From NCBI GenBank assembly GCA_013815775.1, contig JACDFN010000002.1:717-64716 (forward strand): 64,000 nt of DNA, written 5' to 3'. A program made the position numbers and the translations under genes. Under the pieces are notes generated by a model that had not been told where the DNA came from, did no database searches, and saw nothing but the letters and a program-made list of their open reading frames with translations. Shown here piece after piece: positions 2,116 through 23,070 of the stretch. This DNA comes from Candidatus Saccharimonadota bacterium. Its GTDB lineage: Bacteria; Patescibacteriota; Saccharimonadia; Saccharimonadales; UBA10212. Position 1 is the first letter of the stretch, and every line of letters begins with the position of its first letter.

Positions 2116-3780
2116 ATGGACAAACATAAGAAGTTTAAAAGACCGAAGTCATCCCCGGCCTCGTTAGACGGAATTATCTCGGACGGCCGTGGGCTGGGTA
2201 TACCGACAAGTCGTTCTTACCAGCCTAGCAAAGGCGACAAGACACCGACTCTTGGTGAATTTATCAGAAAAGATGACGGCTTCCACCCCCTACGGCAATC
2301 GCAGCAGAGTCTGGGTTATTCTCCAGAGGCAATTGAAGAAAGAGCTCTATTGGATGAACCTATCGTCCTGGACGATATAGACGGAAGCTACAAAAAGAAA
2401 AGAAAGTTAAAAAAAAGACACTCCCACAGGGCCAGATTTCTAAAAAGAGCAAGCCTGGGTCTGCTGACTCTAGTAGTAGTAGCTGCTGCGTACTTTGGCT
2501 TTAAGTTTTATCAAACTCAACAAAAGATTCTGGCTGGAGGAGGAAAAGCCCCTGCAGTCTGTGACTCAAATATAAATGCCGACAACCTAAAGGGTGAAGG
2601 TGACGGCCGTGTAAATATATTAGTCCTTGGTAACGGGGGTGCAGAACACCGAGATGGTCCCGATTTAACCGACACGCTTTTAGTGATTAGCATTGATACG
2701 ATCAATGATAAAGCGGCTATCTTAAGCATACCTAGGGATTTGTGGGTAAGAATTCCAGGTAACGGCAGTCGCAAGATAAATGAAGCATACTTTCACGGTA
2801 AAGAGGAATCTGAAGCAAGTGAAAGAGAAGAAAAGATCCGCGACGGCATTAAGTTGGTCGACGAGACTCTCGAGAAAGTTATAGGGGTACCAATTCACTA
2901 TAATGCACTTGTAAGTTTCGCTGCCTTCAGGCAATCAGTTAACGCAGTGGGCGGTGTTGATATAAATGTTCCCAAAGAGCTAGCAGTTTCTGAGCGGCTT
3001 TGGGATGAATTTACTAGAAAGAGTTATAACCTCAACGTAGGAGCAGGCCAACAGCATTTTGATGGTCAGCGAGCGCTGTTTTTTGCGCGTTCTCGTTTAA
3101 CAAGTACACGGGGTGACTTCGATCGGTCGGAACGCCAGCGTTTGATGCTTATAGCTCTTAAAGATAAGGCCTTGTCCGCGGGGACATTCAGTAATCCCGT
3201 CAAGGTCTCCCAGCTACTGGACAGCCTAGGTGATAATGTCTACACAGACTTTGACACTCGTAGCATCAAGTGTCTGTATAAAAAAATGTCTGAAATACCT
3301 TCTACAAGTATAGCCTCCCTGGACCTGGTGACCCCACCGCAGGACCTTATAACAGGTGGATCCATGTTACTGGGCGGAAAAAGCGTTTCCATTCAGCAGC
3401 CTAAATCGGGACTCTATAATTATGACGATATTCAAAACTATATTCGCAACGCTCTAAGAGATTCATTTATCGCCAAAGAGAACTCTAGTATTGCCGTTTA
3501 TAATGCCACAAGCACGGTTGGATTGGCCGCAAAAAAAGCTAATGAACTCAAATCATATGGCTATAACATAACTACAGTGGACAATGCCAAGGCTACTGAC
3601 CCAGCGACAACGATAATTGTTGACCTTACCAAGGGTTCGCATAAATACACTAAGAATTATCTGGAGGATCGTTTTGGGGTAACTGTACGGTCTAGTATGC
3701 CAGTAGGGTCGGGGCTTACACCTCCTGTAGGCACTAATTTTGTTATAATACTCGGTGAAGATGTTACAGATTCCAGATAG
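2116..3780 (+). CDS. LytR-CpsA-Psr (LCP) family cell-envelope phosphotransferase with a C-terminal LytR_C-like domain
   Basis: N-terminal basic tail plus one TM helix. Core motifs NILVLGNGG, DLTDTLLVISID, ILSIPRDLWV and RGDFDRSERQR. Confidence 0.85.
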   Translation: MDKHKKFKRPKSSPASLDGIISDGRGLGIPTSRSYQPSKGDKTPTLGEFIRKDDGFHPLRQSQQSLGYSPEAIEERALLDEPIVLDDIDGSYKKKRKLKKRHSHRARFLKRASLGLLTLVVVAAAYFGFKFYQTQQKILAGGGKAPAVCDSNINADNLKGEGDGRVNILVLGNGGAEHRDGPDLTDTLLVISIDTINDKAAILSIPRDLWVRIPGNGSRKINEAYFHGKEESEASEREEKIRDGIKLVDETLEKVIGVPIHYNALVSFAAFRQSVNAVGGVDINVPKELAVSERLWDEFTRKSYNLNVGAGQQHFDGQRALFFARSRLTSTRGDFDRSERQRLMLIALKDKALSAGTFSNPVKVSQLLDSLGDNVYTDFDTRSIKCLYKKMSEIPSTSIASLDLVTPPQDLITGGSMLLGGKSVSIQQPKSGLYNYDDIQNYIRNALRDSFIAKENSSIAVYNATSTVGLAAKKANELKSYGYNITTVDNAKATDPATTIIVDLTKGSHKYTKNYLEDRFGVTVRSSMPVGSGLTPPVGTNFVIILGEDVTDSR

Positions 3781-4510
3781 AATTAAACCATTAAGGGGTT
3801 TTTCACACGCCATCCATATCGGGTTGAATGTGCTGCTGCCAATACTGGCTTACATTTTAGTAAGGATAGACTTTGTTTTACTTGCAATTCTGCTGATTCT
3901 CTTAAGTAAATGGCGGATATTTGCCGTTCGACCGCGATATTGGCCTGCCAATATAATTGCTAGTAGCATAGATATCATCGTTGCTGTTTCATTGGTCCTG
4001 TTTATGGCTAATACGTCTTCTGAATGGTGGCAGTTGTTTTGGGTTGGTCTATACGGGCTTTGGCTACTATGGCTTAAGCCCCGGTCTGACGTCCTTTCGG
4101 TGTCAGCTCAAGCTATGATAGGTCAGCTATTGGGTCTTTCCGTGTTATATCTTAAATTTGGCGATACTTCATTAGCCGCTATTGTGGCTGGCACATGGGG
4201 TATAACTTACCTAGCTGCCCGGCATTTTTTTACTAGCTTTGAGGAAGCTCAAGTGGCATTACTATCCCATGTGTGGGCCTATTTTTCAGCTAGTTTAGCG
4301 TTTATTTTGGGGCATTGGCTGTTATTTTACGGCACTATTGCTCAAATTATTGTTCTACTAACAACCATAGGGTATGGTTTGGCGGCGTTGTATTACCTCG
4401 ACTCTGCCGAGAGATTATCCCAAAATATAAAAAGACAACTCCTGGTTATAATGTGTGCCATTGTTGTTATCGTAGTTGCGCTTTCGGATTGGTCCGGTTC
4501 TACAATTTAA
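3755..4510 (+). CDS. Polytopic integral membrane protein, function unknown
   Basis: 251-aa ORF with about 7-8 hydrophobic segments. Overlaps the LCP gene 3' end by 26 nt. No motif recognised. Confidence 0.6.
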   Translation: MKMLQIPDRIKPLRGFSHAIHIGLNVLLPILAYILVRIDFVLLAILLILLSKWRIFAVRPRYWPANIIASSIDIIVAVSLVLFMANTSSEWWQLFWVGLYGLWLLWLKPRSDVLSVSAQAMIGQLLGLSVLYLKFGDTSLAAIVAGTWGITYLAARHFFTSFEEAQVALLSHVWAYFSASLAFILGHWLLFYGTIAQIIVLLTTIGYGLAALYYLDSAERLSQNIKRQLLVIMCAIVVIVVALSDWSGSTI

Positions 4511-5841: not shown

Positions 5842-6648
5842 TCATACGGGCTCAAAAACTTGTATTAATTGGTTTGTAATTCTTAGTTTATAACCCGAAT
5901 TTTTTGCAATACTGGCTAAAGGGGAGTGTTGAGGTGGCATAGACTCAGTTAGGATGTAACTCGGCTTTCTGCTTAGGTTTAACACTTGTTCAAAAAGTTT
6001 CCTATATATATCCAAGCCATCAGCACCGCCAAATATAGCAAGCTTTGGCTCCCTTTTGGCCGCTTTATTTATTTTATATTTATTAGGCACATAGGGTAGG
6101 TTTGCCATAACAATATCGTAGGGCCTTACGTTGTTGTTCAATAGGTTTCTCTTGTACGCCTTGAGTCCAACTTCATGCATGACGCTGTTATGTTTAGCAA
6201 CCGCTAAAGCGCTGGCATCAATGTCATATAAATCAATCTTCGTGCAACGAGTTTCAAGCGTTGCTGTGATACCCAAGCATCCGGAGCCCGTTCCAACGTC
6301 TGCAATAACTGTGTTCTCGGAAAGATGCAGTTTTTTTAACATGCTTATCATTACCTCGGACTCTGGTCGGGGCTCTAGTACGTGCTTGTTAATTTTAAAT
6401 TTACGTCCATAAAACTCACTATAACCTCTGATATAAGCCATGGGTTCGTGCTTAAGGCGTTTCTTAAGGCGGTAGTTTAGTTTTTTAAGGCGAGTGGTGG
6501 AGATAATCATTTCTGGGTGGGCCAGAATATGGGCACGATCTTTATCCAGGCAGTCTTCCAGTAGAATTAAAGAATCAAGCCGTGCTGAACTAATGCCGGC
6601 TGTTTCTAGACTTCTGGTCGAGTAATCTAACCAAAGCTCAGTTCTCAT
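5842..6648 (-). CDS. prmC: Release-factor glutamine N5-methyltransferase (PrmC/HemK)
   Basis: SAM motif [11 protein letters not shown]. The catalytic tetrad reads NLPY instead of NPPY. Also has [17 protein letters not shown]. Overlaps the prfA 3' end by 11 nt. Confidence 0.88.
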
Positions 6649-7696
6649 TTTGAGCCAGCTCTAGTTCATAGTTATGTAGTTTTTCGATAATGTCGTCAAT
6701 CTCGCCATTCAATGCCCCAGGAAGGTTACTGCGACTGTAACCAATACGGTGGTCTGTGATTCTATCCTGGGGAAAGTTATAAGTCCGGACTTTCTCGCTT
6801 CGGTCTCCACTTCCAATTAGCAGCCGCCTTGAATCGCCCAATTGCTTCTGTTCATCTTCTATTTTCGCTTGAAGTAGGCGGGAGCGCAGAATTTTCATAG
6901 CTTTATCTTTATTTTTAATCTGGCTTTTTTCATCTTGCATACTAACCACTAGGCCAGTAGGTATATGGGTAATACGTACGGCTGAGTCGGTTGTATTAAC
7001 ACTTTGACCGCCATGTCCGCTAGCTCGAAAGACATCAATTCTGAGGTCCTCGGGATTTATCTGTACGTCTGAAACCTCTGCCTCGGGTAGAACTGCTACC
7101 GTTACAGTGCTGGTGTGTATTCTGCCGCTGCTCTCAGTGGTCGGTATGCGTTGTACGCGGTGGACTCCAGCTTCGAATTTTAGCTCTTTGTAAGCTCCAA
7201 CTCCTTTAACCATAAAAATAATTTCTTTATAACCTCCAGAATCGCTGGAATTTTCGTTAACCAGCTCGATTTTATATCCGTGGGTTTCGCTCCAGCGAGC
7301 ATACATCCTATAAAGCTCACCAGCAAATAAACTCGCTTCGTCACCTCCGGCGGCAGCCCTTATTTCTACCACACAATTTCGATCATTGTTCGGATCCTTA
7401 GTTGTAAGAAGTTCAGTCAAAGATTGAGTATTACTGGCAAGACGGTCTTTTAGTTGTTTCACTTCTGATTTTGCCAGTTGGGCTAAATCTTGGTCTGCGC
7501 CCTCAGCCATACTCTCGGCCTCTCTGAGTTGAACCTCTAGTTGCATTTTATTATCAAAGGCCTCCAATATCTTTGATAGCTCACTCTCTCGTCGGGCAAG
7601 TTTAGGGTACTCCGAAGAGCTAAATATATCAGGATTCTCTAGTTTTTTTCTGAGGACACTATATTCCTGGCGAAGTGCCTCTTGTCTTATATCCAT
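6638..7696 (-). CDS. prfA: Peptide chain release factor 1
   Basis: GGQ motif ([23 protein letters not shown]) and PxT tripeptide as PTT. Start taken at ATG 7696, which is preceded by GGAG. The ORF track begins at a GTG at 7723. Confidence 0.95.
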
Positions 7697-7767
7697 CAGT
7701 ATCTCCAGTTTATAAAAAATCACCCGAAATACCTAAGAGGTAATAGGGACTTATGATACTTTTTAAA

Positions 7768-14814: not shown

Positions 14815-16335
14815 ATGAGATGGTTAATTAAAATTGTTGATGAAATCATAGCCCGTTATCCAGCCGGAGAGATATTGATTGAGTCTGGAGGTTCACCCTC
14901 TGGAACTCACCACTTAGGACATTTACGAGAGCTAGTTACTGCTGATGCTATACTGCTCGAACTGGGCCGAAGAGGCAGGAAGGCACGGCACATTTATTTT
15001 GTTGATGATCTTGACGGGCTGAGGAAGATTCCGACAAATGTGCCAGCCAACTTTAAAAAATATCTAGGTCGTTCACTTTATGACATACCTTCGCCCGATT
15101 TTTCGGACATCTCTTATGCTGATTACTTTTTACAAGGACTAGTTAATGCTTGCTCGACTCTGAGGATCGAAGTCGAGTTTATTCGTTCGCACCATAAGTA
15201 TCAAACAGGCTTCTTTGTTTCGGCCATAGAAAAATCTTTAGAGCAAGCTGATAAAGTACGCCATGTTCTAGAAACTGTTTCTGGACACAGCCTAGGGCTG
15301 GAGTGGTCCCCTATTCAAATTAACGAGGAAGGGTATCTTAAAAAACGCAGGTTCTTAGCCATTAATACCGACGCTAAAACCGTAGACTACGAGGATCGTG
15401 ACGGTAAACAGAAATCGATTAATTACGCCAATGGAGACGTTAAGCTCGATTGGCGAATAGACTGGCCGGCCCGTTGGCAGTTATTGGGTGTACACGTTGA
15501 ACCATTTGGAAGGGATCATGGCAGTAGCGGGGGAAGTTATGATACGGGAGCAGCTTTATCAAAGGATGTATTCGAAAACACCCCGCCGTATCCTGTACCT
15601 TACGATTTCGTGAATATGGCAGGGGATACCAAGAAGATGAGTGCCAGCAAGGGCACGGGTCTTGATGCTGAAGGTGTGATCAAAGTATTACCTCCGGAAA
15701 TAGTACGCTTTTTCATGCTTCGATATCCACCCGAAAAGAGGTTATACTTCGACCCATTGCACGTTGCCCAGCTGATAGACGATTTTACTGAACTTCTTAC
15801 TAAAAGCCCAGAAACAGCCCTCATTGCTTTTAGCAAGACAACCTTAGACCCTACTATCAGTAAGATACCTTTCTCGCATATGGTAGAAAGTTATCAGGCA
15901 TCCTTGAAAAATCCTGAGTCCACTCTTTTGACATTATCTCGAACGGGTTACCAAAAAATTGTTAACCAAAATAAACAAATTATTTTAGACGAACTTAAAT
16001 ACATTGAGGCATGGCTGCAGAAATGGGCACCTGAAGAAATTAAATTTGAGCTCATTGACGATGTTGATACTGCCAGTTTCAGCCAAGAAGAAAGAAGTTA
16101 TTTAAACAAATTAAGTCTAAAAATAGAAGAAGCCTCGGAAGATTCGAACGGAGAATGGTTTCATAAGGCAATTTACGAACTGAAAGATTTCAGCGGGCTG
16201 GAGCCTAAGCAGTTATTTACAGCAATATACAAAGCTACAATCGGTAAAGAGTCGGGTCCTCGTGCAGGCTGGTTTCTGTCCATATTGCCACGAGATTGGT
16301 TAATAAAAAGACTAAAATTTGAAGACCAGCTATAA
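14815..16335 (+). CDS. lysK: Class I lysyl-tRNA synthetase
   Basis: HIGH-type motif PSGTHHLGHLRE and KMSKS-type motif KMSASKG. Length and layout match archaeal-type LysRS-I. Confidence 0.88.
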   Translation: MRWLIKIVDEIIARYPAGEILIESGGSPSGTHHLGHLRELVTADAILLELGRRGRKARHIYFVDDLDGLRKIPTNVPANFKKYLGRSLYDIPSPDFSDISYADYFLQGLVNACSTLRIEVEFIRSHHKYQTGFFVSAIEKSLEQADKVRHVLETVSGHSLGLEWSPIQINEEGYLKKRRFLAINTDAKTVDYEDRDGKQKSINYANGDVKLDWRIDWPARWQLLGVHVEPFGRDHGSSGGSYDTGAALSKDVFENTPPYPVPYDFVNMAGDTKKMSASKGTGLDAEGVIKVLPPEIVRFFMLRYPPEKRLYFDPLHVAQLIDDFTELLTKSPETALIAFSKTTLDPTISKIPFSHMVESYQASLKNPESTLLTLSRTGYQKIVNQNKQIILDELKYIEAWLQKWAPEEIKFELIDDVDTASFSQEERSYLNKLSLKIEEASEDSNGEWFHKAIYELKDFSGLEPKQLFTAIYKATIGKESGPRAGWFLSILPRDWLIKRLKFEDQL

Positions 16336-17457: not shown

Positions 17458-17501
17458 ACCCTGAGTTCGTTTAATGTCCTGACTTGTCTATAATAAATTA
17501 T

Positions 17502-17996
17502 ATGGATGAGGCTATTTTTGCTGCAGGTTGTTTTTGGGGAGTGCAATACTACTTCGACCAGGTACCAGGAGTACTTAGTACTTCTGCTGGCTATATTGGC
17601 GGGCACACAGAAAAGCCAACTTACGATCAGGTGTGTGGTCATATTACCGGTCATGCCGAAGCAGTCAAAATTATATTTGACCCTGAAAGAATAAACTTCG
17701 AGACTCTACTTGGTCATTTCTTCCGTATTCATGATCCTACCCAATTGAACCGCCAGGGGCCGGACATTGGAGATAACTATCGCTCTGCTATTTTCTACAA
17801 TAATAATTCTCAAAAGAAAGCTGCTCAGGTCGCAATTGCAGATCTGGATAAAGCTGCTAAATATAAAAGCCCGATTGTTACTAGCCTAGAGCCTGTTACA
17901 GCTTTTTGGCCAGCCGAAGACTTTCATCAAAAATTTACGCAGCGCACAGGGCGTGGTATGTGTCATGTATCCTATGCGCCACTAAGTGTTAAATAG
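17502..17996 (+). CDS. msrA: Peptide-methionine (S)-S-oxide reductase
   Basis: AGCFWGVQYYF active-site motif. Start taken at ATG 17502, 8 nt after TATAAT. The ORF track starts at TTG 17484. Confidence 0.93.
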   Translation: MDEAIFAAGCFWGVQYYFDQVPGVLSTSAGYIGGHTEKPTYDQVCGHITGHAEAVKIIFDPERINFETLLGHFFRIHDPTQLNRQGPDIGDNYRSAIFYNNNSQKKAAQVAIADLDKAAKYKSPIVTSLEPVTAFWPAEDFHQKFTQRTGRGMCHVSYAPLSVK

Positions 17997-19248: not shown

Positions 19249-19626
19249 ATGAAAACGATTGAGAGCAAGTATTTCGAGAGCATTGTTTCAGATGCTATTG
19301 ATGCAATCCCCCCAAATTATCTCAAGCGTTTAGAGAACGTAGCATTTATTATTGAAGATGAGCCAAGCCTAGAGCAGCGTCATAAGCTAAAGCTAAGATT
19401 TAATGAATCGTTATTTGGTTTATATGAGGGTGCGCCCCTGCCGACGCGCTTTGGCCAAACAAAATTATTACCCGATAAAATCACCATCTTCAAGCAACCA
19501 TTAATTATGTTCAGTCATGATATTGAGGACCTGAAGAAAAAAGTCCACAACACCGTTTGGCACGAGGTGGCTCATTATTTCGGATTAGACCACGGTCGCA
19601 TCGACGAAATTGAGCGAAAGTCATAG
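19249..19626 (+). CDS. Small zincin-like metallopeptidase family protein (Zincin_1-like)
   Basis: 125 aa with C-terminal HEVAHYFGLDH (HExxH). Confidence 0.75.
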   Translation: MKTIESKYFESIVSDAIDAIPPNYLKRLENVAFIIEDEPSLEQRHKLKLRFNESLFGLYEGAPLPTRFGQTKLLPDKITIFKQPLIMFSHDIEDLKKKVHNTVWHEVAHYFGLDHGRIDEIERKS

Positions 19627-19726: not shown

Positions 19727-20053
19727 ATGAATCTCTATAAATCGCAAAGACAAATGGTGGGACATTTGGTAAACACTTTCGTTGTTCTGGCAGAGTTACT
19801 TCTGGCTCTAAGGGTAGTGTTAAAATTCGCCGTTGCGGAAGCCGACGCATCGTTTGTGCACTGGGCTTTTAGAGTTACTGACCCTTTGTTGGATCCTTTT
19901 CGTGGAATTTTTACTAACCCAACTGCCTCAACAGGAAGCTGGGTAATTGATTTCCCCGCATTATTGGCTATGGCAGTCTATGCGGCAGTAGGCTATATGC
20001 TAGTTTCTCTAGCTGCCCGCCTAGCGCCTTCTTTCTCAGATCGACGTAAATAA
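19727..20053 (+). CDS. YggT-family small membrane protein
   Basis: AAGGAGG Shine-Dalgarno 5 nt upstream. Contains RVTDPLLDPFRGIF...IDFPALLAM, which resembles the YggT core. Two TM helices. Confidence 0.6.
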   Translation: MNLYKSQRQMVGHLVNTFVVLAELLLALRVVLKFAVAEADASFVHWAFRVTDPLLDPFRGIFTNPTASTGSWVIDFPALLAMAVYAAVGYMLVSLAARLAPSFSDRRK

Positions 20054-20066
20054 TAAAAACAAGAAC

Positions 20067-20098
20067 AAGGCGCCGGGTTTTAGCAGCGGCGCCTTTTG
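20067..20098 (+). terminator. Rho-independent terminator after the yggT-like gene
   Basis: Perfect 9-bp stem AAGGCGCCG (20067-20075) / CGGCGCCTT (20087-20095) with an 11-nt loop. The T run begins inside the 3' arm (TTTT at 20094-20097) and is followed by G. Confidence 0.75.
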
Positions 20099-20164: not shown

Positions 20165-20986
20165 ATGGCAGTCGTCCCTCGTCTAAAGAGTAATAAGAAA
20201 CGTAATAAAAAAATTACCCCTCAAAAATTACGGATACTAAATTTCGTAGTGGCTGGCTTGTATGCTCTACAGGGAGCATTGATCTTAATTTTAAGTAATT
20301 CAGCTAACGGAATCCAGCGCATAACTACTGGTTATATCAGCCAAGATAAGACTGCTAGTACGGCAGCCAGCAAGACAATAACCGCTCAGGCTAACCACTT
20401 ACTGTTCGACCTTAATCTTGCTTATATAGTAGCTGCCTTTTTGTTTATAGGGGCTGCGGTCCACCTGCTTGTTTCTACGCGCTATAGGGTAGGATATGAG
20501 GCCGATCTAAAAAACCGAGTTAATAGAGCGAGGTGGGCATCCTACGCCTTGAGCCTAGGATTAATTATGCTAGCGGTTGCCTTATTGTCTGGGATCTTTG
20601 ATCTCTCTAGTCTCATTATGATTTTTGCGCTAACTGCATTAGTGGGTATTATGGGCCTTATGACGGAGAGGAGTATGATAGGATCGAAAAATATTAAATG
20701 GTTACCGTATTTGGAGGGCCTTAAATTTGGCCTAATACCCTGGCTTGTTATATTAATTTATGCCTGGGGAGCGTACGCATACGGGAGCACTATCTTAACC
20801 TTTGTCTACTTCTTATACCTAACAGCGTTGCTACTTTTCGTGGCCCTTTTTGTCAATTTTTATTTACAAATTAAAAAAATGGGACGATGGGAAGATTACT
20901 TATTCAGTGAAAAGTCTTTTATCATAATAAGTTTTATAGCCAGCTCAGCCGTTGCTTGGCAAATATTCGCGGGAACACTTAGATAG
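20165..20986 (+). CDS. Heliorhodopsin-family 7TM protein lacking the Schiff-base lysine
   Basis: Seven TM segments and a Lys-rich N-terminus. Blocks align to heliorhodopsin 48C12: RWASYALS vs RWVEYSLS, GLIPWLVILIY vs GIVPWIGLLIY, and FIASSAVAWQIFAGTL vs LVAKSALAWQIFSGTL. The K241 equivalent is S260 (AGC, 20942-20944). Confidence 0.8.
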   Translation: MAVVPRLKSNKKRNKKITPQKLRILNFVVAGLYALQGALILILSNSANGIQRITTGYISQDKTASTAASKTITAQANHLLFDLNLAYIVAAFLFIGAAVHLLVSTRYRVGYEADLKNRVNRARWASYALSLGLIMLAVALLSGIFDLSSLIMIFALTALVGIMGLMTERSMIGSKNIKWLPYLEGLKFGLIPWLVILIYAWGAYAYGSTILTFVYFLYLTALLLFVALFVNFYLQIKKMGRWEDYLFSEKSFIIISFIASSAVAWQIFAGTLR

Positions 20987-21011: not shown

Positions 21012-21809
21012 ATGGGATACCAACGCGCAGAGCCCTACAAACTAGGGCAAACCACGCCGTTTAAGATTAGTCGGAGTAAAATCGAGGATTTTATACGTTG
21101 CCAGCGCTGCTTTTGGCTCGACAAAAGACTCGGCATAGCTAAACCCTCCATGCCACCCTTTCTTATAAACAGTGCCGTTGATACCTTACTAAAAGCAGAG
21201 TTTGATATTTACCGCGAGAAGGGGGAGCACCACCCTTGGCAGATTGAATTTAAGGTCAAAGCTAAACCGTTTGCACATAAAGATTTAAGTCGTTGGCGCC
21301 ATACTTTTACTGGAGTCCAGTATCATCATAAGCCTACAAATTTGTTGATTTTTGGTGGAGTAGACGATGTTTGGGTCACTCCAAAAAAAGAACTAGTGGT
21401 GGTTGACTACAAAGCCACCGCCAAGGTTAATGAGATTAAGGACCTAGAAGATTCAAAATGGCATGACTCTTATCGCCGCCAGATGGAGATTTATCAATGG
21501 TTGCTTAGAGGCGAAGGACATAAGGTTAGTGACACAGGATACTTTGTTTATGCGAACGGGATTAATAGCAGAAAAGGCTTTTTTAATAAGGTTGAATTCA
21601 GGACTAATATTTTTCCCTATAAAGGCAGCGATAAGTGGGTAGAACCAACACTCCTCAAAATTAAAGACTGTTTGGAATCTAGCAGTATGCCCAAAGAATC
21701 ACCCGATTGTGAGCACTGTGCCTACGCAAAAAGTCGGACCGAGCTAACACTCAAAGAACTACAAAGTAGAAAACAAACTGATAAAAAACAACAAAAGTCC
21801 GTAACTTAG
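21012..21809 (+). CDS. PD-(D/E)XK superfamily nuclease with a Cas4/RecB-like Cys cluster
   Basis: N-terminal CQRC, core GGVDDVW...LVVVDYKAT (D...DxK), QMEIYQWL, and C-terminal CLES...CEHC. Confidence 0.7.
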   Translation: MGYQRAEPYKLGQTTPFKISRSKIEDFIRCQRCFWLDKRLGIAKPSMPPFLINSAVDTLLKAEFDIYREKGEHHPWQIEFKVKAKPFAHKDLSRWRHTFTGVQYHHKPTNLLIFGGVDDVWVTPKKELVVVDYKATAKVNEIKDLEDSKWHDSYRRQMEIYQWLLRGEGHKVSDTGYFVYANGINSRKGFFNKVEFRTNIFPYKGSDKWVEPTLLKIKDCLESSSMPKESPDCEHCAYAKSRTELTLKELQSRKQTDKKQQKSVT

Positions 21810-21822: not shown

Positions 21823-23070
21823 ATGTTAGATATCCGGTATATTAGAGAAAATTCAGACCAAGTAGCTGAAAAGTCCAGACAAAAAGGCTATGAGGTGGAC
21901 ATTCCTGCGGTTTTAGAACTTGATAATAAATATCGGGCCCTACTACAAAAAAAAGAAAACTTTAGCCGTCAACGCAACGAACTGGCTAAGCAAATTCGGG
22001 GTGATCAATCAAGCGAACAAATTGAGAGAGGACGATCCTTGAGGGAAGAGGAAAAATCTCTTACTGCTGAATTTGAAGCAACTGAGAAGTTATTAGTTCG
22101 TTCACTGGCAAAAATACCAAATATCTTTCCGGAGGACACTCCCCTTGGCGGCGAAGAGGCTAACCGTAATGAAAAAAAATGGGGAGTAGTTAGCGAAAAA
22201 GACTTTGACGTTCTGGACCACCTATCCTGGGGTGAAAAACGAAGTCTGATTGACTTTGAAAGGGGCGCTAAAGTAGCCGGAAATAAATTCTACTTTCTTA
22301 AAGGTGTGCTGGTGGAGCTAGAGTTTGCTATTTTTCAACTAGGTTTAGCGTTAGCAAAAAAATATGGCTTCACTGCTATGCAAGTACCACATATGGTGAG
22401 TTCCAAGGTCCTGGAAGGCGCTGGTTTTTCAGCTCGTGGTGAAGAAAAACAAATTTATAAAATTGAAGACGAAGATTTACACCTAATAGCTACCGCTGAG
22501 ATACCTTTAACTGGGTATCATACTGATGAAATTATCGACTTCAGTAATCTTCCGATTTTATACGCTGGCCTAAGTCCGGCCTACCGGGTAGAGGGCGGTG
22601 CTTACGGCAAGCACAATAGGGGTTTGTATCGAACGCATCAATTCAACAAACTGGAACTTTATGTGCTTTGCAAGCCAGAGGAAAGTGAGCTATGGCACCA
22701 AAAACTACTAGAGCTAGAAGAAGAGCTTTGCCAAGCCCTAGAGATACCCTATCGGGTAGTGCGTATAGCCTCAGGCGACTTAGGCGCGCCGGCTTATAAA
22801 AAGTACGATATAGAGTATTGGACACCTGTAGATAAAAGCTACCGCGAACTTACAAGTTGTTCGAACGTTACAGACTACCAAGCTAGACGTCTAAACATTC
22901 GATATCGAGATTCAGAAGGTAAAATAGCGTATCTTCATACGTTAAACGCTACAGCTGCCGCTATGAGCCGAGTGACAATCGCGTTGGTAGAGAATCACCA
23001 AGATAAAGATGGAACAATCCATGTTCCTAAAGCTTTACAATTTTATTTTGGTTCCCAAACATCTTTCTAA
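21823..23070 (+). CDS. serS: Seryl-tRNA synthetase
   Basis: N-terminal coiled-coil arm and a class II core (TAEIPLTGYH, RVEGGAYGKHNRGLYRTHQF, LNATAAA). Confidence 0.95.
   Translation: MLDIRYIRENSDQVAEKSRQKGYEVDIPAVLELDNKYRALLQKKENFSRQRNELAKQIRGDQSSEQIERGRSLREEEKSLTAEFEATEKLLVRSLAKIPNIFPEDTPLGGEEANRNEKKWGVVSEKDFDVLDHLSWGEKRSLIDFERGAKVAGNKFYFLKGVLVELEFAIFQLGLALAKKYGFTAMQVPHMVSSKVLEGAGFSARGEEKQIYKIEDEDLHLIATAEIPLTGYHTDEIIDFSNLPILYAGLSPAYRVEGGAYGKHNRGLYRTHQFNKLELYVLCKPEESELWHQKLLELEEELCQALEIPYRVVRIASGDLGAPAYKKYDIEYWTPVDKSYRELTSCSNVTDYQARRLNIRYRDSEGKIAYLHTLNATAAAMSRVTIALVENHQDKDGTIHVPKALQFYFGSQTSF

Follow-up and report, generated by a model that had tools for sequence, protein, structure and literature searches.

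A heliorhodopsin orthologue without Schiff-base lysine and counterion glutamate in a conserved gene slot of Saccharibacteria

The DNA analysed here (hereafter, the window) is a stretch of 64,000 nucleotides of contig JACDFN010000002.1, from a Candidatus Saccharimonadota bacterium, which carries a heliorhodopsin (HeR) gene. The features of this locus are the following, with residues numbered in the query protein and, in brackets, in the canonical heliorhodopsin 48C12.

17484–17996, plus strand: msrA (peptide methionine sulfoxide reductase), also conserved in the neighbourhood of HeR genes in Saccharibacteria
19249–19626, plus strand: Zincin_1 metallopeptidase-like gene, upstream marker of the conserved slot
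19727–20053, plus strand: gene for a small membrane protein of the YggT family, directly upstream of the HeR gene
20067–20098, plus strand: GC-rich hairpin with UUUU after it, in the intergenic region of yggT and HeR (dG −18.2 kcal/mol, z = −2.56)
20165–20986, plus strand: HeR gene, 273 aa, with neither Schiff-base Lys nor counterion Glu (HMM, AlphaFold2, Foldseek)
20261–20263, plus strand: codon of Tyr33, equivalent by alignment to His23 (48C12) of the Schiff-base cavity
20462–20464, plus strand: codon of His100, equivalent by alignment to His80 (48C12), retained
20540–20542, plus strand: TCC codon of Ser126, aligned to the counterion Glu (48C12 E107)
20723–20725, plus strand: codon of Lys187 in TM5 (48C12 I167), the sole membrane-embedded Lys, paired with the clade-specific Glu184
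20873–20896, plus strand: intracellular loop 3, KKMGRWED, conserved and basic, matching the partner-binding region of characterised HeRs
20942–20944, plus strand: AGC codon of Ser260, aligned to the Schiff-base Lys (48C12 K241)
21012–21809, plus strand: PD-(D/E)XK (Cas4-like) nuclease gene, downstream marker of the slot, starting 25 nt after the HeR gene

The HeR reading frame starts with ATG, is uninterrupted, and encodes a protein identical to MBA3757600.1, named "heliorhodopsin HeR [Candidatus Saccharibacteria bacterium]" at NCBI. Residues 22–272 matched the Pfam Heliorhodopsin profile PF18761 along its full length (positions 1–242 of 242) with a score of 194.5 bits (cut-off 26.7, E = 2.5e-57), and the NCBIfam model NF038020 ("HeR") gave 191.7 bits (cut-off 100). 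The best relatives of solved structure were TaHeR (6is6, E = 9e-47) and 48C12 (6su3, E = 7.5e-28). The AlphaFold2 model (pLDDT 92.9, pTM 0.87) presented seven long helices and the AB beta-hairpin typical of HeRs (strands 50–60 and 73–84), and Foldseek superimposed it on TaHeR with a TM-score of 0.94 (rmsd 1.4–2.0 Å) and on 48C12 with a TM-score of 0.88. The protein was thereby confirmed as a full-length heliorhodopsin by homology and fold, as the initial annotation had proposed from sequence blocks of 48C12; those of TM2, TM3, TM5, and TM7 agree with the PDB sequence. The N-in orientation proposed at the same time also held, as the N-terminus and intracellular loops carry 16 Lys and Arg residues versus 3 in the extracellular loops, which supports a predicted N-in, C-out topology through the positive-inside rule. 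Both ICL1 and ICL3 have remained basic, and the query clade preserves the ICL3 motif Q-x-K-K-x-G-x-W.

In the ungapped HMMER alignment of TM7, the Schiff-base Lys of SLVAKSALAWQ lies opposite Ser260 in the query sequence SFIASSAVAWQ, anchored by S256 (S237 in 48C12) on one side and W265/Q266 (W246/Q247) on the other. The S-x-x-x-K motif of this helix has therefore kept its Ser (S256) and shows a second Ser at the Lys position. Ser126 faces the counterion Glu (RWFEYS versus RWASYA in the query), and of the two residues that stabilise E107, Ser111 is kept as S130 and Ser76 is replaced by G96. Besides the Lys, the Glu, and S76, the equivalents of H23, S113, M115, M141, and M/Q213 are missing. The H23 column is occupied by Tyr throughout the query clade (Tyr33 in the query), with His in 53% of the Lys-bearing relatives versus 6% of the Lys-less ones, while H80 is kept as H100. 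Both Ser replacements, the loss of H23, and the retention of H80 had been read in this way before; an additional claim, that TM7 contains no Lys at all, stands for the Schiff-base position but not for the whole helix, since K250 is located at the cytoplasmic end of model helix 7, at a position where canonical HeRs have a conserved boundary Arg/Lys (R231 in 48C12). Sequencing errors do not account for these substitutions: they affect both key residues, no Lys codon can be reached from AGC in fewer than two changes, and the Lys and the Glu are likewise missing from four syntenic orthologues. From its sequence, the protein would thus be unable to act as a retinylidene protein in the usual way.

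The same gene order as in the query, Zincin_1-YggT-HeR-PD-(D/E)XK-SerRS-SecA, was found in the Lys-less relatives P0002, P0003, P0004, and P0080, and the slot MsrA/Zincin-HeR-PDDEXK-SerRS-SecA in P0012, a canonical form with Glu, Ser, and Lys, as well as in about 35 of 80 GTDB Saccharibacteria loci. The query gene is a positional orthologue of the canonical Lys-bearing HeRs and not a tandem paralogue. At position 260, the syntenic orthologues have TCG (S), ACC (T), or ATA (I), and P0012 has AAA (K); at position 126, T, T, and S were found, and GAA (E) in P0012. The hairpin downstream of yggT resembles an intrinsic terminator and would, if it works as one, imply a promoter of its own for the HeR gene. 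No terminator-like site was found on the plus strand between the HeR and PD-(D/E)XK genes, and both are probably co-transcribed, judging from this arrangement.

The YggT neighbour is common to the old Lys-less lineages (the query clade and P0080) and to one Lys-bearing relative (L020). As a strict marker of Lys loss it was discarded, as L020 has both YggT and the Lys and L011, P0014, and P0023 have neither. The conserved neighbourhood forms part of a long housekeeping synteny block, which makes adjacency weak evidence of partnership. No Band_7/flotillin gene was detected near the HeR gene, its neighbours being Zincin_1, YggT, and PD-(D/E)XK. A search with a custom HMM detected no other PF18761-like ORF in the window, nor was a type-1 rhodopsin found there, as the remaining multi-TM ORFs either fall into different families or have no rhodopsin match. 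Among them, a seven-TM ORF at 3755–4510 was considered as a hidden rhodopsin and rejected for its lack of Pfam or PDB similarity. The stretches around the Lys-less orthologues (~3–17 kb per locus) contained no second rhodopsin either.

A survey of orthologues for Lys versus Ser, suggested in the initial annotation, placed the query in a large and repeatedly arising Lys-less set in Saccharibacteria. The Lys was absent in 21 of 91 first-round homologues and in about 77 of the 142 nearest 50%-identity cluster representatives, the Lys-less ones being mostly singletons from Logan, JGI, and NCBI. A variety of residues replace the Lys (S, T, I, M, A, Q, V, and others), and at least four losses took place in the slot. 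The K-to-I changes of P0014 and P0023, which grouped as sisters in 0 of 200 bootstraps, are separate from each other, and the K-to-A change of L011 is a further separate loss. In a scan of 80 loci from GTDB species, the best match was 50% identical to the query and 79 loci were Lys-bearing, which is not an unbiased frequency, as the search patterns favour canonical forms. A profile search with 40 Lys-less sequences against a set of 5.8 billion proteins recovered at least 23 proteins. No Pfam domain was detected in the N-terminal extensions of the longer Lys-less representatives. Tandem HeR pairs appeared in 1 of 94 loci; at locus L023, a canonical HeR is followed by a divergent HeR-like paralogue with a Lys-to-Arg change.

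The syntenic Lys-less orthologues are 55–69% identical to the query and have S, T, or I in place of the Lys. Because synonymous sites were saturated (pS > 0.75) in nearly all genome pairs, pN was compared with pS and with the values of neighbouring genes instead of calculating dN/dS. For the Lys-less orthologues, pN ranged from 0.12 to 0.30 and pS from 0.76 to 0.85, with similar ranges for Zincin_1, YggT, and PDDEXK between the same genomes, and the identity of the HeRs between genomes resembles that of the neighbouring genes. In addition, the reading frames are complete and full-length in five or more species. The Lys-less HeR is clearly no pseudogene by these comparisons, which show purifying selection across the syntenic orthologues.

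Comparison of 99 Lys-less with 134 Lys-bearing relatives revealed where this constraint was relaxed. The largest drops in conservation in the Lys-less set corresponded to the equivalents of K241, E107, S237, S111, Y108, M115, and H80, and extra entropy of +0.39 to +0.55 bit was found in TM3, TM4, TM6, and TM7, versus a value near 0 for TM1, the AB loop, and ICL1. About 30 columns are still 82–100% conserved in the Lys-less set, and the equivalents of R104, W105, Y92, E230, E149, N16, and W246 are 84–96% conserved. The cytoplasmic polar network, the intracellular loops, and the extracellular hairpin stay conserved, the dimer-related AB hairpin being equally or more conserved than in the Lys-bearing relatives. 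The erosion is graded, from young K-to-I forms that keep all other pocket residues to the query clade, which has lost around ten.

With the canonical HeRs TaHeR and 48C12, the query shares the seven-TM N-in fold, the AB beta-hairpin, the slot of the Lys-bearing Saccharibacteria HeRs, the cytoplasmic network (equivalents of R104, W105, Y92, N101, E149, Y226, E230, and H80), and the TM7 end motif S-x-x-x-[K]-S-A-x-A-W-Q; it differs from them in the Schiff-base Lys, the counterion Glu, His23, Ser76, Ser113, Met115, Met141, and Gln/Met213. The fold has also been kept and the Lys lost in Rh-noK, related to xanthorhodopsins and found in marine betaproteobacteria, and in Lys-less opsin homologues of haloarchaea; a non-photochemical role is suspected for Rh-noK, which is usually dropped by surveys that require the Lys (PMC10308929; 10.1101/2025.04.29.651185). 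Rh-noK are, however, type-1 N-out proteins, whereas the query is a type-3 HeR and a slot orthologue that has lost the counterion as well, so the likeness is descriptive, a Lys-replaced rhodopsin fold without family-level homology, and a Lys-bearing paralogue, such as accompanies Rh-noK, is absent from the 64-kb window. FArhodopsins resemble the query in their retinal-free rhodopsin fold, streamlined genomes, and proposed regulatory or organisational role (PMC10308929; cryo-EM preprint 10.1101/2025.04.29.651185). In contrast to the query, their pocket is filled by the bulky H84 and E120, their marine members keep the Lys, and they are paired with a flotillin gene and a PR paralogue, neither of which adjoins the query gene; the combination of occluded pocket and adjacent flotillin is not found here, with the pocket judged from sequence.

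Within the HeR family, the sole precedent found for natural Lys loss is that of the betachlorovirus HeR-like proteins, with Asn in place of the TM7 Lys (PMC12390592), giant-virus genes to which a single paragraph is devoted, with no analysis of their evolution or function. Unlike these, the query group is bacterial (CPR) and presents diverse replacements, recurrent syntenic loss, and purifying selection. Gluopsins and other Lys-less animal opsins, overlooked because surveys filter on the Lys, also reuse a photoreceptor scaffold without covalent retinal (PMC9368030), but they belong to an unrelated family, the type-2 GPCR opsins. Full-text literature searches retrieved no description of Lys-less bacterial HeRs.

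Our preferred reading, to which we assign a probability of roughly 0.55, is that the query is a chromophore-free descendant of HeRs that retains a light-independent function, most likely the binding of a partner. Its ancestor would have been a canonical Saccharibacteria HeR that lost the Schiff-base Lys, the Glu counterion, and the stabilising residues; no retinylidene pigment would be formed, hence no light gating, and the protein would survive through an activity of HeRs that does not depend on light. The likeliest activity would be to bind and modulate, constitutively, a partner in the cytoplasm or the membrane. The contacts would be made by the basic loops of the intracellular side, which are conserved, and by the retained polar network of the cytoplasmic half (R123, W124, Y111, E249, E168, N26, and Y245), in a dimer held by the conserved extracellular AB hairpin. 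The PD-(D/E)XK nuclease and MsrA would be candidate partners by position only. A precedent is provided by AbHeR, which through Lys/Arg residues of its intracellular loops raises the kcat/Km of GS, 5.42 for GS alone, to 8.01 (dark) and 12.19 (light) (PMC9529153), and by OcHeR, which through R102 in ICL1 increases OmrDE by factors of 1.8 (dark) and 2.8 (light) (PMC11109279). These characterised HeRs boost their partners already in the dark, with light only adding to the effect. Rhodopsin-bearing Saccharibacteria have been reported to lack blh (PMC9296517), and as many Saccharibacteria nevertheless have HeRs with Glu, Ser, and Lys in the slot, the inability to synthesise retinal is insufficient by itself to account for the loss of the Lys. 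The light-independent offshoot of the family suggested in the initial annotation is strengthened by the purifying selection and by the relaxation at Schiff-base and pocket columns with the rest constrained; the role suggested for it, that of a scaffold, sensor, or carrier, may be regarded as putative.

A second and rather unlikely reading is that of a receptor or carrier that takes up a hydrophobic molecule, without a covalent bond, in its retained pocket and lateral fenestration, perhaps with a weak light response, for sensing or shuttling a compound of the host; the candidate ligands would be retinal or retinoids, carotenoids, quinones, and host lipids. Saccharibacteria are episymbionts that rely on host lipids, in line with such a role. 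The summed volume of the 25 pocket-lining residues of the query, estimated from sequence, exceeds that of P0012 by 101 Å^3, and the mean for the Lys-less group is smaller than that for the Lys-bearing group. The lining is thus not bulkier overall, and several positions are now Gly or Ala (G96, G132, G161, and A221), so the pocket seems not to have been filled in as in FArhodopsins, with room for a ligand. Lipid tails occupy the HeR fenestration in crystal structures (PMC7049168), TaHeR takes up external retinal through it (PMC9296517), and in a 2025 preprint 91% of HeRs are proposed to have a site for carotenoid binding (10.1101/2025.11.27.691015). However, the pocket columns are relaxed and variable in the Lys-less relatives, unlike a conserved ligand site, and the new Gly residues could equally permit tighter helix packing and the collapse of the cavity.

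It is less probable still that the protein is a regulatory subunit, forming heterodimers with a Lys-bearing HeR or modulating a type-1 pump, the gene for which would lie in another part of the genome. HeRs are dimers and their AB hairpin is at least as conserved in the Lys-less relatives, a functional paralogue accompanies Rh-noK and FArhodopsins (PMC10308929; 10.1101/2025.04.29.651185), some Saccharibacteria have type-1 pumps in addition to HeRs (PMC9166423), and the tandem of L023 offers a possible pair of this kind. Nevertheless, the gene fills the ancestral HeR slot as an orthologue replacing the canonical form and not as a duplicate, the window and the surroundings of the Lys-less orthologues showed no second rhodopsin, and tandem pairs are as rare as described above.

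Mere decay, in which a HeR made useless by the lack of retinal supply or a dark habitat is being lost and its substitutions are meaningless, seems very improbable. The root-to-tip distance of the triad-degenerate clade (0.88) is ~2.5 times that of the other slot-resident HeRs (0.35), as decay would predict, although these values come from a neighbour-joining tree in which the long branches may be partly an artefact; moreover, the young K-to-I variants, otherwise near their Lys-bearing sisters, could be recent inactivations. Against this, pN is low despite the saturation of synonymous sites, full-length frames persist across species together with the ~30 conserved columns, and CPR genomes, small and streamlined (PMC9166423), would usually have shed a useless gene.

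Finally, a Schiff base formed through another lysine can practically be dismissed: K187 is membrane-embedded, conserved in the query clade, and adjoins 48C12 position 166, which borders the retinal pocket (PMC7049168), but as a substitute it was rejected because Lys also occupies its column in the canonical L028, L031, L038, and L052 and in P0005, which retains the TM7 Lys, so that it is not a compensating change, because only 16% of the Lys-less relatives have it, and because residue 167 would point ~120 degrees away from the pocket face of 162/166 by helical periodicity, while K250 is the boundary Arg/Lys shared with canonical HeRs and the counterion and Schiff-base-stabilising residues are gone too.

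The physiological role of HeRs has been debated since their discovery in 2018, and the few functions assigned to them, the regulation of a partner enzyme or transporter, each have an unexplained dark component. The persistence under purifying selection, in one slot, of orthologues without a chromophore site implies that part of the function of HeRs is light-independent, and provides "dark" variants matched to close Lys-bearing orthologues for experiments. As published rhodopsin surveys require the TM7 Lys (PMC9601134, PMC9166423), Lys-less HeRs have been systematically omitted from them; conversely, NF038020 labels Lys-less proteins as "heliorhodopsin HeR" at equivalog level, so counts of light sensing in CPR are likely overestimates. 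More speculatively, and with clearly less confidence than we have in the reading of the query itself, the primary function of the HeR scaffold may be light-independent, with retinal as an optional modulator that Saccharibacteria have repeatedly discarded; the scaffold could regulate a repair or transport partner constitutively from the membrane, or serve as a receptor for host-derived hydrophobic compounds entering by the fenestration. If this is true, about 40% of the nearest sequence clusters would be "dark" heliorhodopsins, discarded by every Lys-filtered survey, and the question of what HeRs are for would be reframed, with natural dark-state mutants on hand to answer it.

The reading frame at 20165-20986 (+) is intact and encodes a 273-aa protein (the query) identical to NCBI MBA3757600.1, named "heliorhodopsin HeR" of a Candidatus Saccharibacteria bacterium (contig of 261 kb). 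The initial annotation had placed it in the heliorhodopsin (HeR) family with the corresponding fold, and both assignments held. The Pfam Heliorhodopsin profile PF18761 matched it from end to end (E = 2.5e-57; 194.5 bits, cut-off 26.7), the NCBIfam model NF038020 "HeR" gave 191.7 bits (cut-off 100), and the nearest solved structures were Thermoplasmatales TaHeR (6is6, E = 9e-47) and 48C12 (6su3, E = 7.5e-28). An AlphaFold2 model built with 60 homologues (pLDDT 92.9, pTM 0.87) presented seven long helices and the HeR-specific AB beta-hairpin, and superposed on TaHeR with a TM-score of 0.94 and an rmsd of 1.4-2.0 Å. The N-in topology claimed at the outset is supported by the distribution of basic residues, 16 in the N-terminus and predicted intracellular loops against 3 in the extracellular loops.

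Ungapped alignments of TM7 placed S260, flanked by the conserved S256 and W265/Q266, opposite the Schiff-base Lys of both TaHeR and 48C12, and S126 aligned opposite the counterion Glu of the same two proteins, so that the two Ser replacements and their codons were as the initial annotation had reported:

20942-20944, + strand: codon AGC of Ser260, at the Schiff-base Lys position
20540-20542, + strand: codon TCC of Ser126, at the counterion Glu position

Two details required correction. The position of 48C12 H23 is indeed not His, and its equivalent, left as Tyr or Ala, is Tyr33; TM7 has no Lys at the Schiff-base position, but it is not devoid of Lys as claimed, K250 being located at the cytoplasmic boundary of helix 7 and matching a boundary Arg/Lys that canonical HeRs have there. 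The query belongs to the HeR protein family by homology; by function, as judged from these positions, it lacks two of the features that define a retinylidene HeR. The NF038020 equivalog model names it "heliorhodopsin HeR" at nearly twice the cut-off although neither Lys nor Glu is present, so that photoreceptor counts drawn from automated annotation of CPR genomes are probably too high.

The HeR gene lies within the following gene order:

First part: M50 protease, Rce1-like, class II aaRS, GreA, class I LysRS
After class I LysRS: MPG DNA glycosylase, hypothetical, MsrA, hypothetical, Zincin_1
After Zincin_1: YggT, HeR, PD-(D/E)XK nuclease, SerRS, SecA

A survey of orthologues revealed that the closest homologues, P0002, P0003, and P0004 (69%, 61%, and 56% identical), also lack both residues (S/T/I at the Lys column, T/T/S at the Glu column) and share the query's gene order, Zincin_1-YggT-HeR-PDDEXK-SerRS-SecA-M16-RF-FtsEX. 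Two more distant Lys-less proteins, P0080 (40% identical), with Met for Lys and Ser for Glu, and P0232 (32%), with Gln for Lys, are encoded in the same genomic region. In addition, P0012 (49% identical) is a canonical HeR with the Glu/Ser/Lys triad in the query's slot, and such canonical HeRs were found in this slot in about 35 of the 80 Saccharibacteria species genomes recovered from GTDB. As Lys-bearing HeRs occupy the same slot, the Lys-less gene is a descendant of a canonical HeR at the ancestral locus and not a duplicate. The original interpretation is supported and extended, and the finding is real.

Comparison of the window with three orthologous loci gave, for HeR, saturated pS values of 0.76-0.85 and non-synonymous differences of 0.12-0.30, a range similar to that of Zincin_1, YggT, and PD-(D/E)XK in the same genomes (pN 0.03-0.35, amino acid identity 0.49-0.94), and the HeR reading frames were full-length in every species compared. 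Neutral sequence at such divergence would contain many stops, with pN near pS. On these substitution patterns, the Lys-less HeR gene is under purifying selection.

The loss of Lys is recurrent. It was absent in 21 of 91 full-length first-round homologues (I in 9; S, T, and M in 3 each; Q, V, and N in 1 each). When 1.84 billion cluster representatives were scanned exhaustively with phmmer, 1,535 HeR-like clusters were identified; of the new full-length representatives, the 142 nearest to the query included about 77 without Lys, with the AWQ anchor aligned in all and Q, S, T, V, A, L, I, Y, M, N, or others as replacements; ten longer Lys-less representatives were full-length PF18761 matches. Many Lys-less representatives (320-378 aa; P0120, P0124, P0105, P0137, P0131, P0193, and others) carry N-terminal extensions of 50-130 aa, in which no Pfam domain was found. 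A bootstrapped NJ tree of slot-resident HeRs, with the three triad columns left out, grouped 20 fast-evolving sequences in one clade (90% support), none with the canonical triad, and united the query with P0002-P0006 in a subclade supported at 99%. Lys-to-Ile changes marked two lineages (P0014/15 and P0021-25), which were nested among Glu/Ser/Lys sequences and joined in 0 of 200 replicates, and locus L011 represented a further case, Lys to Ala; together with the fast clade, these imply that Lys was lost independently at least four times within a single syntenic slot. On a rougher NJ tree of 231 sequences, Fitch parsimony required at least 45 changes, an indication only that the Lys column may be labile.

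When the functional residues of 48C12 (PMC7049168) were mapped onto the query, equivalents of K241, E107, H23, S76, S112/S113, M115, N138, M141, I142, and Q213 were lost, and those of H80, Y92, N101, R104, W105, Y108, S111, E149, W173, Y179, F206, Q216, Y226, E230, S237, S242, W246, and Q247 were kept. Between 134 Lys-bearing and 99 Lys-less relatives, conservation dropped most in the latter at the K241, E107, S237, S111, Y108, M115, G145, A245, and H80 columns. Extra entropy in the Lys-less set (+0.39 to +0.55 bit) affected TM3, TM4, TM6, and TM7, with none in TM1, the extracellular AB hairpin, ICL1, or ECL3, and several AB-hairpin and ICL1 columns were even more conserved than in the Lys-bearing set. 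The young Lys-to-Ile forms kept all other pocket residues, whereas about ten had changed in the query clade. A gradient of this kind would be expected if a chromophore site no longer in use decayed step by step in a protein otherwise still needed. In P0005 (1.5-kb Logan contig), which is sister to the subclade of the query, the TM7 Lys and the Glu are both present, Val stands at S237 and Leu at Y108 and H23, and the pocket is remodelled as in the query clade (G76, L112, I115, L166, L203, L210); pocket remodelling may therefore predate Lys loss.

The covalent retinal attachment site and the counterion are thus gone from a protein maintained by selection, and we infer a light-independent action. 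The HeR functions so far assigned by experiment involve partner binding through basic intracellular loops (PMC9529153, PMC11109279): glutamine synthetase had a kcat/Km of 5.42 alone, 8.01 with AbHeR in the dark, and 12.19 with AbHeR in the light (PMC9529153), and with OcHeR the ABC transporter OmrDE was up 1.8-fold in the dark and 2.8-fold in the light (PMC11109279). The query retains basic ICL1 and ICL3 (Q-I-K-K-M-G-R-W) and the cytoplasmic polar network. Based on both observations, we propose that it would be a constitutive, dark-state-like regulatory scaffold, binding its partner via these basic loops.

A role as non-covalent ligand receptor or carrier seems unlikely. By residue-volume sum, the pocket lining of the query exceeds that of P0012 by 101 Å^3 and the Lys-less mean is below the Lys-bearing mean; the lining is not bulkier overall, so pocket occlusion of the FArhodopsin type does not apply and a cavity is possible, but tighter helix packing would be equally so. 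Less probable still is a subunit modulating a Lys-bearing paralogue encoded elsewhere in the genome. Such an arrangement is suggested by one of the 94 loci, L023:5983-7766 (GTDB contig CAZPWF010000003.1, Saccharibacteria MAG), a Rh-noK-like tandem. There, 59 nt separate a canonical Glu/Ser/Lys HeR gene (5983-6786) from that of a highly diverged HeR-like paralogue downstream (6846-7766; 306 aa; PF18761 98 bits), in which Arg replaces the Lys and Asp the Glu, the AWQ motif is missing, and the N-terminus carries an extension rich in Lys and Thr. However, the query occupies the ancestral slot, and a custom HMM found no second HeR-like ORF within the 64-kb window, the remaining multi-TM ORFs belonging to unrelated families or having no match. 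One of them, at 3755-4510 (+), encodes an uncharacterised multi-pass membrane protein of 251 aa with about seven hydrophobic segments, no Pfam match (E<=0.01), no PDB sequence match (E<=10), and no similarity to rhodopsins, as which it was rejected. Another Saccharibacteria MAG has two separate Lys-bearing HeR genes (L056, CAYRDH010000065.1; L059, CAYRDH010000042.1), so HeR paralogy occurs in this phylum. Gene decay is very improbable given the low pN against saturated pS and the full-length frames. Finally, an alternative Schiff base at K187, the one membrane-embedded Lys (TM5), found together with E184 only in the query subclade, is scarcely credible, as this column is Lys in only 16% of Lys-less relatives, and its being Lys also in several canonical HeRs and in P0005, with TM7 Lys intact, rules it out as compensating.

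Regarding expression of the proposed scaffold, a GC-rich hairpin followed by UUUU (dG -18.2 kcal/mol) lies downstream of yggT, the nuclease gene begins 25 nt past the HeR stop codon, and no terminator-like site was found on the + strand between the two; HeR is probably transcribed from a promoter of its own, together with the nuclease gene. As to the partner, this nuclease and the conserved MsrA and MPG neighbours give a hint of a damage-repair link, which echoes the reported HeR-photolyase link (PMC9769723) and the oxidative-stress role suggested for CPR HeRs (PMC9166423); the hint is weak because the block is a long housekeeping synteny. A YggT-family gene (window 19727-20053) separates Zincin_1 from HeR in old Lys-less lineages (loci L001, L002, L005, L006, and L093) and likewise in L020, a Lys-bearing relative with an Asp counterion, and is absent from canonical-slot genomes and young Lys-to-Ile lineages; its insertion marks a sub-lineage and is not strictly tied to Lys loss. 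The window SerRS (serS, 21823-23070) is just 38% identical to L001:4296-5630, although the flanks are far more similar (SecA 91%, PD-(D/E)XK 88%), and 66-67% identical to those of L002 and L006, which suggests replacement by a xenologue in one lineage. The conserved LysRS position shows a change of class: the syntenic enzyme is of class I (tRNA-synt_1f) in the window (14815-16335) and most related loci but of class II (tRNA-synt_2) at L094:733-2256.

Loss of the Lys is already familiar in concept from other rhodopsin types, including type-1 rhodopsin-fold proteins (Rh-noK, haloarchaeal homologues, and freshwater FArhodopsins; PMC10308929; 10.1101/2025.04.29.651185) and animal gluopsins (PMC9368030). 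Within HeRs, the sole precedent found in the open-access literature is a one-paragraph note on 23 betachloroviruses encoding HeR-like proteins with Asn at this position (PMC12390592), and recent papers still call the Lys universal (e.g., PMC9601134; 10.1101/2025.11.27.691015). Lys-less HeRs went unnoticed because surveys demand the TM7 Lys: only sequences carrying it were accepted in a large rhodopsin survey (PMC9601134) and a CPR rhodopsin survey (PMC9166423). What is notable here is how widespread Lys loss is among HeRs, that an orthologue has replaced the canonical form at a fixed locus, and that the selection signature is clean; together, these points make the long-standing question of HeR function more directly testable.
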